64,000 bases of DNA from positions 57,536,001-57,600,000 of the forward strand of contig OZ024740.1 in NCBI GenBank assembly GCA_964016885.1, given 5' to 3'. Every line of letters starts with the position of its first letter. Position 1 is the first letter of the stretch. Positions 1-61,995 of the stretch are shown in pieces. The stretch is from Eledone cirrhosa. Lineage: Eukaryota. Position numbers and translations under genes: made by a program. A model generated the notes under the pieces. That model saw nothing but the letters and a program-made list of their open reading frames with translations, ran no database searches and was not told the DNA's origin.

Positions 1-1248
1 AAGGGAAACGCTCGCCAAAATGGAGCGCGCACTCTTCCAATTCCTTTGGAAGAAGCGGGCTCCTATGGTGAGGAGATCCATCTGCTGTCAACACCCTTCG
101 AAAGGAGGGATGGGGATGCCGTGGCTAATGATACGTAAACACGCATTAAGGCTACGGCACCTCCAGGTATTCCTCTCCGGTCAACCGGTGTGGGCCCCGT
201 TTGTGAGGCGAGCCTTTCCCAGACTCGTCTCACTCACCGAGCTGCAATCCTGGGTCAAGCAAAGACCGAGAAAACTGGGCACCTGGCACACCGAGTGTGC
301 CCAGGTGCTCACGGCTCTCTGGCAGGTGGACCCGGCTGTCAGTGGAGAATCCACCTCATCATTCTATAGAGGGCTGGTGGTTAGCAGGTGCGACGACGCC
401 CTGGGAGAAGCCCTAGGCATGGAGGAAGATGAACTGGCCAACCTGTTCGGTAGGACATTCAGCCCGGGACCCATGGATAACTTCCAGAGGTCCCTGGCCT
501 GGTAGTGCTACAGAAGGGCTCTGCCCGTTCGAGAAAGGCTCTACAGACACGGGCGCCCGGGTAGGGACCCCTCGAAAAAGATCTGTCCCAGATGCGTGTG
601 CGACGAGGAAACCGTTGCACACGCATTGGTACACTGCTCGGGCATTGCTGATCTGTGGGGCTATGTCGAACAACTGCTGTCAAGGGTGGGACCGATCCGG
701 TTGACCACCGAGTCTATTGTAACTATCAAGCCGCCTTCCCTCTTCAAAAACGAAGGAGAGGCGGTGTTTCTGTGCGTAATAGCCATGGCGAAAGAGGTTG
801 TATGGTGGACGCGTCTGAAAGGACTGAGGTCAGACACCTTTCTCTCTGGCCAACAACTGGTCCATTTCTTCCGATATCATTTCGGAAGAAGGATCAGGAT
901 GGAGAGAGAGGTGCTGCACCCCAGCCGTTTTTATGAAAGATGGTTGAAAGTGGCAAGAATGGCCCGTGTGAATGGGCCTTCACTCTACATCAGACTATAA
1001 GTGAGGAAGATGAAAGACCAAGGGAGCACCCCTTCTCTGTGCTCCTGAGGAAAAGGGTTGCACACTTTTTTTCGGGGGTGTGTGTGACCCCCCAAGGCGC
1101 CTCCTCTCTATTGAGGATTTTGTTATAAATTCTATTCTGTTATATTTTGTTATTGCCCCCTCCTTATTGAGGACGCCTTGTTTTGTAAACTCCCCCCTTT
1201 GTACTTGTCCCACTTTTGATGCCCTGGTGGCAAATAAAAGAAACATAT
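1..1248 (+). mobile_element. 3' end of an L1/Tx1-type non-LTR retrotransposon (ORF2 C-terminus with zf-RVT-like knuckle, 3' UTR)
   Basis: ORFs 20-505 and 596-1000 are in the same frame, split by one TAG (503-505). Motifs: FQFLWK...GGMGMP and CPRCVCDEETVAHALVHC. GC-rich body ends in AATAAAAGAAA (~1232) next to (AT)n. Confidence 0.8.
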
Positions 1249-25944: not shown

Positions 25945-27745
25945 ATCATCATCATCATTTTACGTCCGCTTTTCCCTGCTTGCAAGGGTGGGATGGGTCT
26001 TATTCAGCACAGCATCTCTCCACTCGTCACGGTCCTTCGTCATCTCCACCGTGAGCTTCAATGATCTGAGGTCTGTTCTCACCACCTCCTCCCATGTTTT
26101 TCGTGGTCTACCTCTACCACGTCTTCCTTCAACTGGCATTTTCTGACACTTCTTCACCCATCGGTCATCCTCCATGCGCAACACATGTCCATACCACCTC
26201 AGTCTCCTCTCCCGTACACTACATTCTATCCCTCTCAGACACAGTTTCTCTCTCAACACATTTATGCTGGGTCGTTCACGCACATTTACACTGCACATCC
26301 AACGGAGCATGCTTGCCTCATTTCTCTCCAGCCGTCGCATATCCTCTGCAGTTGCTGCTCATGTCTCACTACCATGCAGCATCATGCTCCTCACACAGGC
26401 ATCATACAACCAGCCTTTCATACACAGGGAGAAACCCTTCTTCGTCAACAGAGGAAGCAGCTCCCTAAACTTCTTCCAACCCGTCCTTATTCTAGATACT
26501 ATGGCCTCGGAACACCCTCCTCCCATGCTAATCTGATCTCCTAGGTACCGGAAGCTATCCACCACTTTGAAAAATGTGTCTATCAGTGCGACTTCTACTG
26601 TCAAATTTCCCTGTACATCTACTGCATACATATTTCTCCCTACCTGTTAGTTTGCCTGCTATCCCGCTACATCTCTTGCGTACCCAGGATCTGCATTGTG
26701 TGCATTTTATAGAATTTATGCCAGTTCCTTTTCTGCATATCGAACATGGCCATTTCCCTGACGGAATCAGGGTTTTGTCCTCTTTTCTACTCATCAACAC
26801 TTTTGTCTTAGCTAAGTTCACTCTCAGTCCTCTTGCTTCCAACTGCTGTTTCCATAGCCAGAATTCTCTAGCTCCTCTACTTATTCTGCTATAAGAACCA
26901 GATCGTCAGCATAGAGAAGTTCCCATGGACAGCCAGTCTTAAACTCCTCTGTTATGGCTTGGAGGACTATAATGAACAAGAGCGGGCTGAGGACCGAACC
27001 TTGATGTACTCCTACTTGTATCTGGAATTCCTCGCTAAACTCCATTCCTACCCTGACTTTACTGAGAGTACCTCTGTACAAAGTTTGCACTGTCCTCACA
27101 AGCCATTCCTCAACACCTAGCTTCCTTAGGGACCACCAGATGACAGATCGGGGTACCCTATCAAAGGCCTTCTCTAGGTCAACAAAGGCTAAGTATAGTG
27201 GCTTATTTTTCTCTAAGAACCTCTCTTGCAATTGTCTCACCAAGAAGAGGGCATCTGTTGTACTCTTCCCAGGCACAAAACCAAACTGCATCTCATCTAG
27301 TTTGACCCTTTCTCTAATTAGTTGTGCTAATATCCTTTCTGCCACTTTCATAACCTGATCCATCAGTTTTATACCCCTATAATTGCTCCTCTCTAGAGCA
27401 TCCCCTTTACCTTTGTAGCAATTTATGAGAATACTGCTGCACCAGTCTTTGGGTATGACACCACCATATATAGCCTGATTGATGATGCGTGCAACCAGTT
27501 TAGTGCCTACGTCCCCTGATGCCTTCAGCATCTCAGCAACTATTCCCGATGGTCCAGCAGCCTTACCATTTTTCATTTCCCTAATCGCCTTTTGGACCCT
27601 ATATTCGTCAATCTCAATAGCTGGTCCCTCTATTGGATCTACTGAGGGTAATTTCTCTCTCTCCCATTCGTTCTCCACATTCATCAGTCTCTCATAATGA
27701 CATTTCCAGGCCTCCTTTTTCTGATCATTCGTGACACTAAGTACA
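25945..27745 (-). mobile_element. 5'-truncated RTE LINE, subfamily C
   Basis: ORFs 26881-27933 (RT motifs through LYADD), 26555-26842, 26359-26631 and 25960-26340; colinear with 47030-48855. Confidence 0.95.
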
Positions 27746-28151
27746 CTAAGACACACACACATAGAACAAACAACCAACCAACAATAAATAAATAAATAAA
27801 CAAACAAATATAAATAGAAAAATAGAAAAATGAACACAAACACACACAGACACCCGGATGTGGCGCATGCGCAAACTGAGCACGCAACCCACACACAAAC
27901 AAAATGGCGTAGGATAGAAGAAAGGAAAGGCACAGAAACGAAGAAAGAAATCCCCAGTCACTGAAGAGGTCACAGAGTGTGTGACGAAAGAACTATGACT
28001 ATATATATATAAACAACTATCTGGTTGTGGAACCAACCAACCAACCAGAAATTTATAAATTTGTAAATTTATAAATATATAATAAATTAAATTGAAGTGA
28101 AAGCAACTGGTGCGTGTGTTTCTTATTGGCAACATGACCCTCCCAAAGTAT

Positions 28152-28157
<6 letters not shown>
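27746..28157 (+). mobile_element. non-coding repeat (Penelope pLTR/retrozyme-like) containing a hammerhead motif
   Basis: Homologous to 28605-28928 and 60741-61337; shared terminus ATGACCCTCCCAAAGTATAACA abutting (TA)n. Confidence 0.7.
27956..28000 (+). ncRNA. minimal type I hammerhead ribozyme motif
   Basis: AGTCA-CTGAAGA-g-GTCACA gagtg TGTGAC-GAAA-GAAC-TA-TGACT: stem I AGTCA/TGACT, core CUGANGA, stem II, GAAA, very short stem III, UH site. Confidence 0.7.
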
Positions 28158-28224
<67 letters not shown>

Positions 28225-28351: not shown

Positions 28352-28602
28352 ACATCTGATCCCTCTTATGCTTAATTTCTCTCTTAGTTCAATTACGCTT
28401 TGGTGTTTATGTATATTACTATTACACATCCCTCAGAGCATACCAACTTCATTTCTTTCCAATCTACCCAGGTCTTTTGCACACAGTGCCCAGGACTCAC
28501 TACCATGCAACATTGTTGTTCATATACATGCATCATAGTCTTTCCTTCAATTTAAGGGGAAAACCTTTTGTAGCTAACACTGGTAGTAGCTCCCTGAACT
28601 TT
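28352..28602 (-). mobile_element. decayed RTE C-terminal fragment
   Basis: Matches the KFRELLP..MLHGSE..LERNE region of the RTE copies. Confidence 0.7.
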
Positions 28603-28604
28603 AC

Positions 28605-28928
28605 TGATCGTTATTCATTTGTTTGTCAAAGTTCTTTTGTCACACATTCTGTGACTTCCTCAATAAATATCTGTTTTATGCCTCCTCTTTTTCATGGTCT
28701 TAAAGTTCTACTCCATCTTGTCTTTGTTTTGTGGTGCATCATTTGTGTTTTGTGTCTGCACATGCTTTTGCACCTGTATCTCTCTGTGCGGCACAAAACA
28801 GATAATCATTGAGAAGGTCACAGAATGTGTGATGAAAGAACTTTGTCAAAAAAATGAATAACGAACAATAGTGTGAAATTTATATCGTGTGTGTGTTTCT
28901 ATTGACAATCCCAAAATATAACAATATC
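28605..28928. mobile_element. fold-back copy of the hammerhead-bearing repeat (degenerate)
   Basis: Arms ~28608-28664 and ~28808-28864 are reverse complements, each covering the GTCACAGAATGTGTGA-(G/A)AAAGAACT motif. Confidence 0.7.
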
Positions 28929-29299
28929 AGTTTCAACACACGATTTTGCATCAAGAATCTTGCAGAACAAATTCATAAATAAATCATCATCATTATCATC
29001 ATCATCATCATCATTTAATGTCCATTTTCCACACTTGCATTTGTAGGGCGGGCTGTCCCTTTGTGAGAGATCAGGTCAGGAGGACCGTGTTTCACTCACA
29101 CAGAACTGATTTTGGCCTGGTTTCTACAGTTGGATGCCCTTCCTAATGCCAGCCACATTTACAGTGTGTACTGGATGCTTTTTGTCGTGACACCTACACA
29201 ATCACTTTGTGGGCTAGACACTTGTGTGGGCTAGACACTTTTTGTCATGTCGACAACATGACCACTTTACAGTGTGGACTGGGTGATTTTTGTTGTGTC

Positions 29300-35598: not shown

Positions 35599-37300
35599 AT
35601 GAGGGTGGGCTGAAAAGTTCATACGCTGACTATGAAGGAGTGATGTTAGGGCTGTAAAATCGTGCATGCATTAATTTCAACTCTTTGCATTAATAACTGC
35701 ATGCAAACAATGGGTACACAAGAGATGTAGCGGGATCTCAGGAAGCTTAATTAAGAATGTAGGATTCACATGCAGCAGCTGTGCTGAAACAGCAAGCAAA
35801 CAGCCACAGGAAACAAGTACCACCAATCTCTGGGAGGGCCCTGTAGAAACAGTAGACAGCTTCTGCTACCTAGGTGACCGAATTAGCAACGGAGGTGGGT
35901 GCTCAGAAAGTACAATAACTAGGGTAAGAACGGGATGGAAGAAGTTTAGGGAACTACTACCACTGCTAGCTGCAAAAGGCTTCTCCCTCAGAATGAAAGG
36001 CAGACTGTATGATGCGTGTATCCGAACAGCGATGTTGCATGGTAGTGAGACCTGGGCGCTGAAGGTGGAAGACTTACGTAGATTAGAGAGAAACGAAGCC
36101 TGCATGCTCCGATGGATGTGTAACAGTAATATACGTGAACGACAAAGCATAAATGAATTGAGAGAGAGACTGAGCATAAGAGGAATCAAATGCTGCGTGC
36201 AGGAGAGGCGGTTACGCTGGTATGGACATGTGATGCGTATGAAGGATGACAGCTGCATAAAAAGGTGCAGAGCACTAGAAGTTGATGGAAACCGCGGAGT
36301 GGGGAGACCCAAGATGACTTGGGATGAGGTGATAAAAGCCGACCTTACCCAACTACACCTCTCAAAGTCAATGACACACGACCGTGACTTCTGGCGTCAC
36401 GCAGTAATACAGGGTACCCGACCTCCCATGGGTACATGCTGAAGCATATAAACAATATGCCCCCCCCCCCCACCGCAAGGTGGTCGTGGAGGTGCCACGG
36501 CAAAAAAGCACCCAGCCCACACTGTAAAGTGGACGTGTAGGCGCCACGAAAAAGCACCCAGCACTCACTGTAAATGAGGTTGGTGTTAGGAAGGGCATCC
36601 AGCTGTAGAAATCAAGCCAGATCAGTTCCTGTATGAGCAAGGCATGGTCAGCCGACCAGACACTGCCCACAACAGGACAACCCGTCTAACCCATGCTAGC
36701 GTGGAAGAACGGACGTAAAACGGTGATGATGATGATGATGATGCATTGTTTCTTCCCTAGTAAACTGACTGAAAAGAAGACTTCAAAAGTAACTAGTAGC
36801 AACTAGTCTTGAAAATGGACAAAATTTGGACATTCATGCTAACATGGTTGCTATATTAGGGCATAACACTCTAGCTTTAACAACAGTGCAAAAGTGGGCA
36901 GCTGAATTTAGGTGGGGAAGGGAGAGTCTTGAAGATGACCAAAAGTCTGGATGTCCTACAATTGTCATCATCAAAGAAAACATTGATCATGTTCACCACA
37001 TGGTGAGTGACTATAAATCAAATATAGAGTATATTCTGCACAATGAACTTGCTATGACGAAGGTTTCTGCTCAGTGGGTGCAACATCTTCTGACATTTGA
37101 TCAAAAGCACACCAGGCTGATCACATTTCAGGAAAAGTGGACAATATTTGATCCAGCTGGTTTCCGTGAACATTTCCTCCTAACCCAGGATGAGTGTTGG
37201 GTTCATTTATCACTTTGAGCCAGAGACAAAGAAACAATTCATGCAGTGGAAAAACCCTTCCTCACCTACTCCAAAGAAGGTCAAGGTCATTTCATTTGCA
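35599..37300 (+). mobile_element. mariner remnant split by an RTE-B insertion
   Basis: TIR GAGGGTGGGCTGAAAAGTTCAT at ~35601; ORFs 36826-37218 and 37190-37408 (DIHANMV..VQKWAAEF, WVQHLLT, TQDECWV, PETKKQFMQWK). Confidence 0.85.
35701..36743 (+). mobile_element. 5'-truncated RTE LINE, subfamily B
   Basis: ORF 35993-36442; B-type UTR and (GAT)n tail. Confidence 0.95.
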
Positions 37301-54895: not shown

Positions 54896-55431
54896 TCAAC
54901 ATGCTTCAGAGCAAGACCAGTAGGTGGTGAGTGCTGTATGCTCCAACTGGTCCATGTACATGATGGCCAGCAGGCCTGAGAGACTTGACCACATCATAAG
55001 TCCTAAAATTTGTTTGTAGATGGGGCACCCAAACTGGAAAAAGATGTACATGACAACAGAGAACAGTTCATGGGCATCAGCAGCAGTGAGGCCCAAAACA
55101 ATTGAGGTTGGTGGCAGCAATGATATTGTCAGTAATTAAGTTGGTGGGTGGGTGGGGGGGGACAGAGGTGTAGAAGGAAACTACATCTAAACTAAATGGG
55201 TATCTAATCTATCTAAACGTGATGCTGTTAAGGTTTTTTTAGTCTGTTGATTATTCTGTGTGAGTTGTCCACGTGTCCAAGGAATATGTGAAGGAGAAGT
55301 TTGAGAAGTCTGGAGAGAAGCCAGGAAATTTGATAAAAAGGGCCATTTATGCTGGAAACAAGAGGTCTAATTTTGAAAATTGAGCCCTGGTTTGTGTGTT
55401 TTAATAAGCTGGTAAAAGATTGGGAGCTCAC
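54896..55431 (-). mobile_element. Penelope-like element RT remnant
   Basis: KIRPLVSSINGPFYQISWLLSRLL, SLDVVSFYT-like codons near 55170-55200 and YKQILGLMMWSSLSGLLAIMYMDQLE resemble the PLE RT motifs RPIVS..P.Y and G.AMGSPLS...A..YM..LE. Confidence 0.75.
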
Positions 55432-55746
55432 TGTTTCTGTTGATGAAGATGCATTTAATTCTATTAGGTAAACTTCTGCTGTAACAGATATTAAAATATA
55501 ATTAACCTAACAGCTTCACACCAACTAGAGTCTATATGCTGTTATTTGACCTGCCAGAAATAGCAGTCATATCTCCCACAATTCCCATCTTACCATCTTA
55601 AAACAAGAAAAGGCACCACCTTAAAGAGATTTATTTGATCACATTAATCCTAGTACTTATTTATTCAAGCCTAGCACTTATTTCATCGATCTCTTTTTGC
55701 TGAACCACTAAGTTACAGCTGTACACAAGACATAAACATAAACAAT

Positions 55747-59852: not shown

Positions 59853-60684
59853 TACAGGGTGCGGACGATATTTGTTCGCAAGATTACTGTCTATGAAAAA
59901 ATAACACAGTAGTTTTATTTTTTAAGATATATTTATCAAACTTGGGTCAGTTTGTCTTCATGACTTGTTCTTTCGATCTCACTCGATAAACCCGCTATTG
60001 GCTTTGATGATTACCTCAAGGCGGCCTCGGAACCGGCTACAGGCCTTCGTCATTTTCCCCTGACTTAGGCCCCTCAAGGCACTTGTGATCCTGGCCTTCA
60101 GATCGTCTTTCGTATTGCAGCTAGATCTGTTGGTGTCTCGTTCCACTGCACCCCACACAAAGAAATCGAGGGGGTTGCAGTCAGGCGAGCTGGGAGGCCA
60201 GATGTCAGGTGAAGTGTGGTCGACAAAGTTCTCTGTCAGCCATGCTTGGGTCTTTCGGCTGGTATGGCAGGGCGCTGAGTCTTGCTGCCACACGTACGGC
60301 CTACCTGCAGCTACCTGGTCGATCCAGGGCTTTACTACCTCGCTCAAAACGCGGATGTAGCCATCGGTGTTCAGCTTGAGGCACTCAGGGAAGAAGTGAG
60401 GTGGCATGATGTCACCTTGACTGCTGACGAGACCTTAGACCAATGTTGTCGCTGGAAACTTTGTCTGGGCACCTGTTGTTCTGGGAGTTGATCTTCTGGT
60501 CTTATTTGTCCTGGCGTGGATTCCAAGAAGAACTCCGTGTCTCTTCCACAAATTTGGAGCTTCAAAATTATTCATAATCAATTATTCTGAAAATAAATAA
60601 TGGAAATATAGTCACTGTTTTTATGAAGACAAGAGTGACAACGGAAGTAAAAAAAATTTGCATAAAAATCGTCCGCACCCTGTA
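59853..60684 (-). mobile_element. internally deleted maT-family (DD37D) Tc1/mariner transposon with both TIRs
   Basis: TA|CAGGGTGCGGACGATATTT...AAAAATCGTCCGCACCCTG|TA. ORF 59979-60407 has QQD-x37-D (QQDSAPCH...WPPSSPDCNPLD). Confidence 0.9.
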
Positions 60685-60740
60685 TATCATCATCATCATT
60701 TAATGTCTATCTTCAACACTAGCATGGGATATATATATAG

Positions 60741-61507
<767 letters not shown>

Positions 61508-61566: not shown

Positions 61567-61995
61567 TGGTAATACAACCGTTAGTTCACCATACCAAGAA
61601 CAATTGTTTCACCTTAGCGGACAACGTGAGAAGATTTCATTTCTTGAATTTAGGCAATCGCTATTGCGTAATCTCCTTAGAATATTTATCCTTTCTTCAA
61701 TACACAATCCACAAGACGGATTGCCCGTACACTAGGGGCAATCTGTCATATGGACTGTGTATTGAAGAAAGGATAAATATTCTAAGGAGATTACGCAATA
61801 GCGATTGCCTAAATTCAAGAAATGAAATCTTCTCACGTTGTCTACATGCGAAGTAACTGTGAAGTAACTGTTTCTGGACATGCGCGTTTATAAGGTTGTT
61901 CTCCCTGTTCCATATAACCATGACCAGTACGAAGTGAGGATCCGCTAAGGTGAAACAATTGTTCTCGTTATGGTGAACTAACTGTTGTGTTACCA
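61567..61995. mobile_element. palindromic Penelope-like element end (GIY-YIG C-terminus plus 3' region)
   Basis: Inner arms 61620-61726/61736-61842, outer arms 61567-61621/61941-61995. Encodes (C/Y)GLCIEERINIL....LNSRNEIFSRCLHAK*. Confidence 0.75.

Follow-up and report, generated by a model that had tools for sequence, protein, structure and literature searches.

A hammerhead-bearing repeat of Eledone cirrhosa is very probably the truncated end of an abundant protein-coding Penelope-like element

The repeat at 27748-28160 (+) of the analysed window, a stretch of 64,000 nucleotides of the Eledone cirrhosa genome (contig OZ024740.1, positions 57,536,001 to 57,600,000), very probably comes from a Penelope-like element (PLE) that is young, abundant and protein-coding, being a 5'-truncated copy of its 3' UTR/pLTR, the end where the hammerhead lies. 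Its predicted hammerhead is likely to be a slow self-cleaver, assisted by dimer formation or by protein, and to be bypassed in most insertions.

By blastn, the window repeat was 84% identical over 414 columns to L076, a full-length natural copy of the element. The nearest copies, L039, L042 and L043, were 96.7-97.4% identical, and all three run on into the ORF. The ATG at 28134 is the same as that which starts the frames of 1,228-1,229 aa in L076 and L074, and the conserved end of the repeat, CCAAAGTATAACA, is the beginning of the PLE ORF. The segment 28134-28160 (+) was assigned to the first codons of this ORF and to the short 3' terminus, the first of two inferred reverse-transcription start sites. 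It is followed by the (TA)n target microsatellite at 28157-28222; TA runs also lie beside most other copies. Older copies are present in the same window: an inverted unit of an older subfamily at 28602-28979 (minus-arm relic 28617-28672; plus-arm relic 28800-28855 with a tail of ~58 nt to 28979), a truncated copy at 60736-61022 (-), found by similarity and by the covariance model, whose motif relic at 60852-60905 has a changed GAAA, and an inverted unit at 61066-61342 (minus-strand tail piece 61066-61106; plus-strand arm 61118-61342 with a relic at 61161-61216). Both places of recurrence given in the preliminary description exist, but the one given as ending at 28928 reaches 28979 because the ~58-nt tail is present.

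Exact matches to the motif numbered 13,638 in the 3.0-Gb genome, and matches to a 32-mer from the 3' end numbered 24,033; the reversed-pattern control gave none in either case. In many of the 30 loci inspected, a frame with a terminal GIY-YIG-type domain stops ~200 nt before the motif. A protein search gave frames open up to 1,257 aa among the 150 scored of 9,037 candidates, and the 20 long-frame loci that were fetched included two complete pLTR-ORF-pLTR copies, L074 and L076, with unbroken frames of 1,229 and 1,228 aa, respectively, which comprise a reverse transcriptase (RT) plus a C-terminal GIY-YIG. The unit is 4,039 nt long (~4.04 kb) and has a single ORF. Full copies have 205 nt between the ORF stop and the hammerhead core downstream of it, and L076 has 112 nt between the predicted cut site and the ATG that follows. 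Ten near-intact copies were 95.3-98.7% identical over 2.1 kb. The ~400-bp repeat had been described as having no protein ORF, but its origin is not ORF-free, given the stop 205 nt before the core and the ATG at 28134. Linkage to a PLE RT/GIY-YIG ORF, which had been proposed as a check, was found intact in L074 and L076, and at least 43 of 98 sampled copies enter the ORF. In a subfamily represented by L116, L134 and L260, a part of the 3' UTR is duplicated in tandem.

An AlphaFold model of the C-terminal 709 aa of the protein had a pLDDT of 91.8, and the eight best Foldseek matches to it in the PDB were all telomerases (TERT E 5e-8). Pfam RVT_1 matched one ORF fragment weakly (E 1.7e-4); a Pfam search with two full-length proteins gave no families, and a sequence search of the PDB with the PLE protein gave no matches. 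The YVDD motif, the linker cysteines and the endonuclease cysteines were invariant across 94 sequences. The linker, C-x4-C-x2-C between the RT and the endonuclease, is that of the Neptune clade and a feature common to Nematis. The C-terminal GIY-YIG with its CCHH motif was assigned by motif only, from residues conserved in alignments. The best named homologue was an Octopus vulgaris protein (70%). A separate observation is that an Octopus vulgaris 'dynein regulatory complex subunit 6-like' isoform (P0113) includes a stretch 79% identical to the PLE ORF; it would be either an annotation chimera or an exonised element.

The minimal type I hammerhead motif stands at 27956-28000 (+) with the letters and coordinates first reported for it, on which the window sequence, a strict descriptor (one match in the window versus none in 40 composition-matched shuffles) and a covariance model agree. 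Stem I is formed by 27956-27960 and 27996-28000 (5 bp), the CUGAAGA core by 27961-27967, and stem II by 27969-27974 and 27980-27985 (6 bp), with an extra G at 27968 between positions 9 and 10.1. GAAA occupies 27986-27989, and the U-A at 27994-27995 gives a predicted cut after A27995. The motif has the whole set of sequence features of PLE minimal hammerheads, namely the CUGANGA/GAAA/UH core, helices I and II, the extra base at 9/10.1 and the position in a pLTR, here adjoining (TA)n, so its assignment to this kind stands. A covariance model built from 10 copies of the family, the window's own copy at 27952 (+) among them, found exactly five motif copies in the window (27952+, 28800+, 28617-, 60852- and 61161+; E<=3e-13), and the next-best match had E 0.48. 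The preliminary description had likewise counted five, and four of the copies have core substitutions.

In the Infernal-type check proposed for the motif, the family model recovered these five copies, and an Rfam scan of the window gave no hammerhead model at E<=1, Rfam being uninformative for minimal motifs. Single-strand folding of the motif gave a stability that was not significant (z -0.86 to -1.36). The letters of the 2-bp stem III in the preliminary description are there, but this stem would close a 2-nt loop and therefore cannot form in the monomer. The helix III segment of the window copy is predicted to be unpaired even as a dimer (+1.4 kcal/mol); the predicted self-pairing energies in other subfamilies are -1.7 to -5.0 kcal/mol.

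The pattern of changes among copies indicates that the hammerhead core and stems are under purifying selection. Among 63 copies spanning the motif, recurrently changed sites, defined as those changed in 4 or more copies, were absent from all 33 core and paired positions; they accounted for 4 of the 10 free ones (N7, loop 2, loop 3 and H17) and for 23 of 155 in the flanks (p 0.002 and 0.009). With the threshold at three copies, the counts were 1 of 33, 5 of 10 and 29 of 155. Rare changes amounted to 1.1-1.2% in every site class, and such equal rates are what neutral decay predicts. The catalytic core positions were protected as much as the stems, H17 was only U or A at the subfamily level, and loop-3 variants kept or improved self-complementarity. 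Older subfamilies frequently have U3 with G8. Covariation of U3 with A8 inside the genome was considered and rejected, as the genome-wide matches with U3 numbered 574 and only 11 of the 100 listed had A8, with no clear master variant.

Three relatives among 12 metagenome loci (L219, L223 and L228) keep the fold with compensatory stem changes. In L219 (47% protein identity) and L223 (40%), the motif lies ~70 nt past the stop, and its stems are different in sequence and still paired. The core of L219 has U3-A8, and its match to the covariance model alone was weak (E 0.18); L223 was absent from the covariance-model matches and its motif was found by descriptor, and in L228 the motif occurs twice in identical form, at a distance of 2.76 kb (E 8e-4). 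L227 and L230 have a motif on the opposite strand only, and neither the descriptor nor the covariance model gave a convincing motif in 7 of the 12 loci. There was no compensatory pair change within the E. cirrhosa genome. The covariation check proposed earlier was borne out by the compensatory stems of the three relatives but not by the formal count, in which none of the 10 pairs had a double change; the MAFFT alignment used for it had two distant rows mis-registered. The L223 contig also shows a related PLE in partial tandem, with an unusual core variant of the hammerhead (GAAU with a matching A at 16.1) and a palindromic helix III.

The anatomy of the insertions was analyzed in 98 copies recovered from 100 listed places with the 3'-end pattern, a selection independent of the hammerhead; the 5' extents are lower bounds, since indels and the fetched length end the alignments. 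No breakpoint was common to the 5' ends, which spread across more than 1.4 kb. The predicted cut site was crossed by 74 copies (73 before one hypermutated copy was rechecked), and no pile-up of 5' ends was seen there among the 98. Only two copies end within 3 nt of the site, both at inversion junctions, and this rarity points to uncut RNA as the likely main template. There are two 3' termini, one near +26 of the ORF and the other, in the 46 of 98 copies that carry an additional tail of ~58 nt, near +84. TA runs adjoin 44 of the 52 copies that lack the tail and 43 of the 46 that have it, and contigs from public runs have loose TA ends at both of the two 3' termini. A tail is present on exactly one arm in all 23 inverted pairs, and the pLTR-ORF-pLTR partial tandem (L074, L076), the inverted 5' arm and the one-sided tail all occur in this family. 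Among the 100 listed motif places there were 10 divergent motif pairs within 4.5 kb.

These features would be produced if the ORF protein nicked (TA)n DNA and reverse transcription were primed at the two ORF-start sites of a more-than-unit transcript, one per DNA strand. Early termination would then yield truncated copies such as the window repeat, as well as inverted units with a tail on one arm. The usual insertion template would be uncut RNA. The hammerhead may trim read-through or tandem transcripts, for example by freeing the ORF message; its processing of precursor RNA would be slow, would depend on a dimer or on protein and would leave most insertion templates unprocessed.

Dense A-to-G changes on the sense strand were found in 3 of the 98 sampled copies. 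A pattern requiring three A-to-G changes gave nine matches at six loci (its A-to-pyrimidine counterpart gave none), and a second A-to-G pattern gave nine matches at six loci, three of them new. Strong change was seen in at least eight units (L260, L261, two in L262, L263, L264, L090 and L273), each arm of which carries 16-57 A-to-G changes, versus 13 or fewer among 92 other copies; L255, L269 and L271, with only 3-5 changes, were left out of this count. The genome-wide frequency of such units is probably of the order of 0.1%, and with this rarity the three in the sample were a lucky draw. The window copy is not edited. The A-to-G changes fall within the pLTR region only, from about -125 to about +131 relative to the cut site. 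At the changed sites a 5' G is depleted (28% versus 45%, p 0.001) and a 3' G is enriched (53% versus 39%, p 0.008), which we take to be the preference of ADAR. Different loci mostly have 10-50% of the changed sites in common (21 of 34 in one pair), and the two arms of one unit have nearly all of them in common (22 of 22 in L260). In L262 and L273, the antisense and sense arms carry the A-to-G changes on the same strand, which is what the editing of a fold-back RNA, followed by its copying in one piece, would give.

We consider it probable that fold-back PLE transcripts hyperedited by ADAR were reverse-transcribed into the germ line, with the edits serving as barcodes of single templates. Both arms of an inverted unit would then derive from one RNA primed at two sites, the template would be longer than one unit with its hammerhead uncut, and fold-back units with no ORF could be re-mobilised in trans. 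The alternatives to be set beside this are a strand-specific mutator acting on DNA, as the source of the A-to-G clusters, and copying of one arm off the cDNA of the other, as the source of the sites shared between arms. A literature search, with subscription journals mostly outside it, found no paper on A-to-G-edited PLE copies; editing of LTR elements from G to A by APOBEC is described in the available part of PMC4866542. If the changes are ADAR marks, they allow the Penelope insertion mechanism, still unsettled, to be read from the genome at the level of single molecules, namely whether there is one template or two, whether it is linear or circular and whether it is cut, and cephalopod RNA editing has been turned into heritable sequence. 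This editing record matters more than the hammerhead repeat and is the part worth pursuing.

The preliminary description had seen in the repeat a separate non-autonomous family of the retrozyme kind. Under such a reading, independent ~400-bp units would be cut by their hammerhead, circularised and moved in trans by another PLE. The majority of copies are indeed short and have no complete ORF, and the one-strand A-to-G changes over both arms of the fold-back units L262 and L273 indicate that short inverted units are likely re-copied in trans occasionally. However, the 5' ends scattered over more than 1.4 kb have no common breakpoint, at least 43 of 98 copies extend into the RT/endonuclease ORF, the window copy's own subfamily has the ORF (L039, L042 and L043), none of the 100 listed motif places has a same-strand motif neighbour within 1 kb, and the motif is minimal and not of the canonical type of tandem retrozymes, as these are described in the part of PMC7229834 available. 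This reading is largely refuted, and we regard it as extremely improbable. A model given in the accessible text of PMC4209133, in which hammerhead cleavage in both pLTRs releases a unit RNA, ligation closes this RNA into a circle and repeated copying of the circle produces pLTR-ORF-pLTR, would also explain copies crossing the cut site and 5' pLTRs reaching upstream of the cut. Against it, the 5' pLTR of L260 (G000:C1:2082500-2091500) carries 22 A-to-G changes and the 3' pLTR only 2, and their subfamily letters differ, so the two were not read from the same RNA segment; L260 is a single informative insertion. Cleavage was also unnecessary in vitro for another PLE, according to the available part of PMC11167929, and circle formation appears rather improbable.

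The motif might instead be kept as an RNA structure, for instance one in the pLTR that binds protein or serves translation, and have lost any useful rate of cleavage. The absence of an end pile-up at the cut site, the weak helix III, the U3 variants of older subfamilies and the weak in vitro activity of minimal hammerheads (PMC4209133, in the text available) would all agree with a structural role. Such a role nevertheless leaves aside that the core is as protected as the stems, that H17 is only U or A and that the self-complementarity of loop 3 is kept or improved, and a related minimal hammerhead cleaved in the presence of its ORF protein, as reported in the accessible part of PMC11167929. 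We consider this explanation unlikely and prefer that of a slowly cleaving hammerhead at the end of an autonomous PLE.

Minimal hammerheads (min-HHR) in metazoan PLE pLTRs were described by Cervera and De la Pena in 2014 (PMC4209133), with weak cleavage and in dimers only, as far as the available text reports. The present motif is like them in its type I topology, long helix II, helix I of 4-5 bp, extra 9/10.1 base, G10.1-C11.1 and reduced, near-palindromic helix III, and likewise in the thousands of dispersed single motifs, the pairs on opposite strands and the U3-A8 variant of one relative. It differs from the min-HHRs of that text in belonging to a new family, of Eledone cirrhosa, for which site-level purifying selection was measured, and in that the helix III of the youngest copies is a mismatched palindrome only. 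The Neptune/Nematis-type PLEs of Craig et al. 2021 (PMC8557442, in the part available) share with the Eledone PLE the RT, the CX2-5CxxC linker, the C-terminal CCHH GIY-YIG, the pLTR, the inverted 5' arm, the one-sided tail and the (TA)n targets, whereas their tail is 30-40 nt and that of the Eledone PLE ~58 nt, and the Eledone ORF is, unlike theirs, ~1,230 aa with a low-complexity N-terminal insert. The octopus families named in the accessible text of that paper are Naiad and Hydra; three of four RT motifs searched were absent from the available supplement and the fourth was found only in an unrelated place.

Poseidon PAc of Anolis (Frangieh et al. 2024, PMC11167929), as described in the part available, resembles the Eledone PLE in its AT-rich targets and in the minimal hammerhead of its pLTR; its two start sites within the ORF start, which delimit the tail, and its mainly uncut RNA template correspond to those proposed for the Eledone PLE. 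The PAc cut site lies 26 nt after the start codon, whereas that of the Eledone PLE lies 112-138 nt before it, so that the ORF would stay intact on cleavage. PAc is a member of the Penelope/Poseidon clade, in which the linker is missing according to the same text, in contrast to the Eledone PLE. Metazoan non-LTR retrozymes (PMC7229834; bioRxiv 10.64898/2026.07.22.740005; both in part) also have a type I hammerhead in a short, AT-rich, pLTR-related repeat, but are described there as tandem units of 150-450 bp with canonical hammerheads and no ORF; unlike these, the Eledone repeat forms no short tandem arrays (0 of 100 listed places) and is the end of an ORF-bearing element. The combination of a hammerhead and a PLE is an ordinary, well-preserved case of a known arrangement. 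A repeat annotation of Octopus vulgaris counts 31 recently active Penelope-like families, with ribozymes absent from the available main text (PMC13282606), and the Eledone family may already be in such repeat libraries. The present results help in annotating the family, in which more than 13,000 copies carry the motif and which also offers a young substrate for testing the role of the pLTR hammerhead.

An RT remnant at 54902-55501 (-) of the window, given earlier as 54896-55431 and proposed as the mobiliser of the repeat, is a PLE RT as claimed but belongs to a second PLE lineage. Its matches in the genome are to a second PLE family, and since this lineage is only ~25% identical to the hammerhead family, the remnant is not the mobiliser; as a candidate for that role, it had no tblastn match from the family ORF or from 120 homologues and no pairwise similarity. 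The second family resembles the Nematis rows in the available supplement of PMC8557442. A young relative in this lineage (L243-L250) has frames of up to 884 aa with an RT, a cysteine linker, a C-terminal GIY-YIG and Nematis-like motifs, and the descriptor found no sense-strand hammerhead in these eight loci.

Other mobile elements were observed in the window. A 5'-truncated RTE-type LINE at 25963-27750 (-) lies head to head with the 5' end of the PLE copy; their junction near 27750 has an 8-nt duplication, and no target-site duplication was discernible there. Many pieces of RTE LINEs are scattered across the whole window. Fragments at 1-997 (+), at 59982-60434 (-) and at 36793-37215 (+) presumably represent an L1/Tx1-type LINE end, which the first resembles, and Tc1/mariner transposases, which the other two resemble. 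Finally, a near-perfect long inverted repeat at 61650-61813, with a weak match, below threshold, to an Rfam miRNA model, is probably a MITE-like element.
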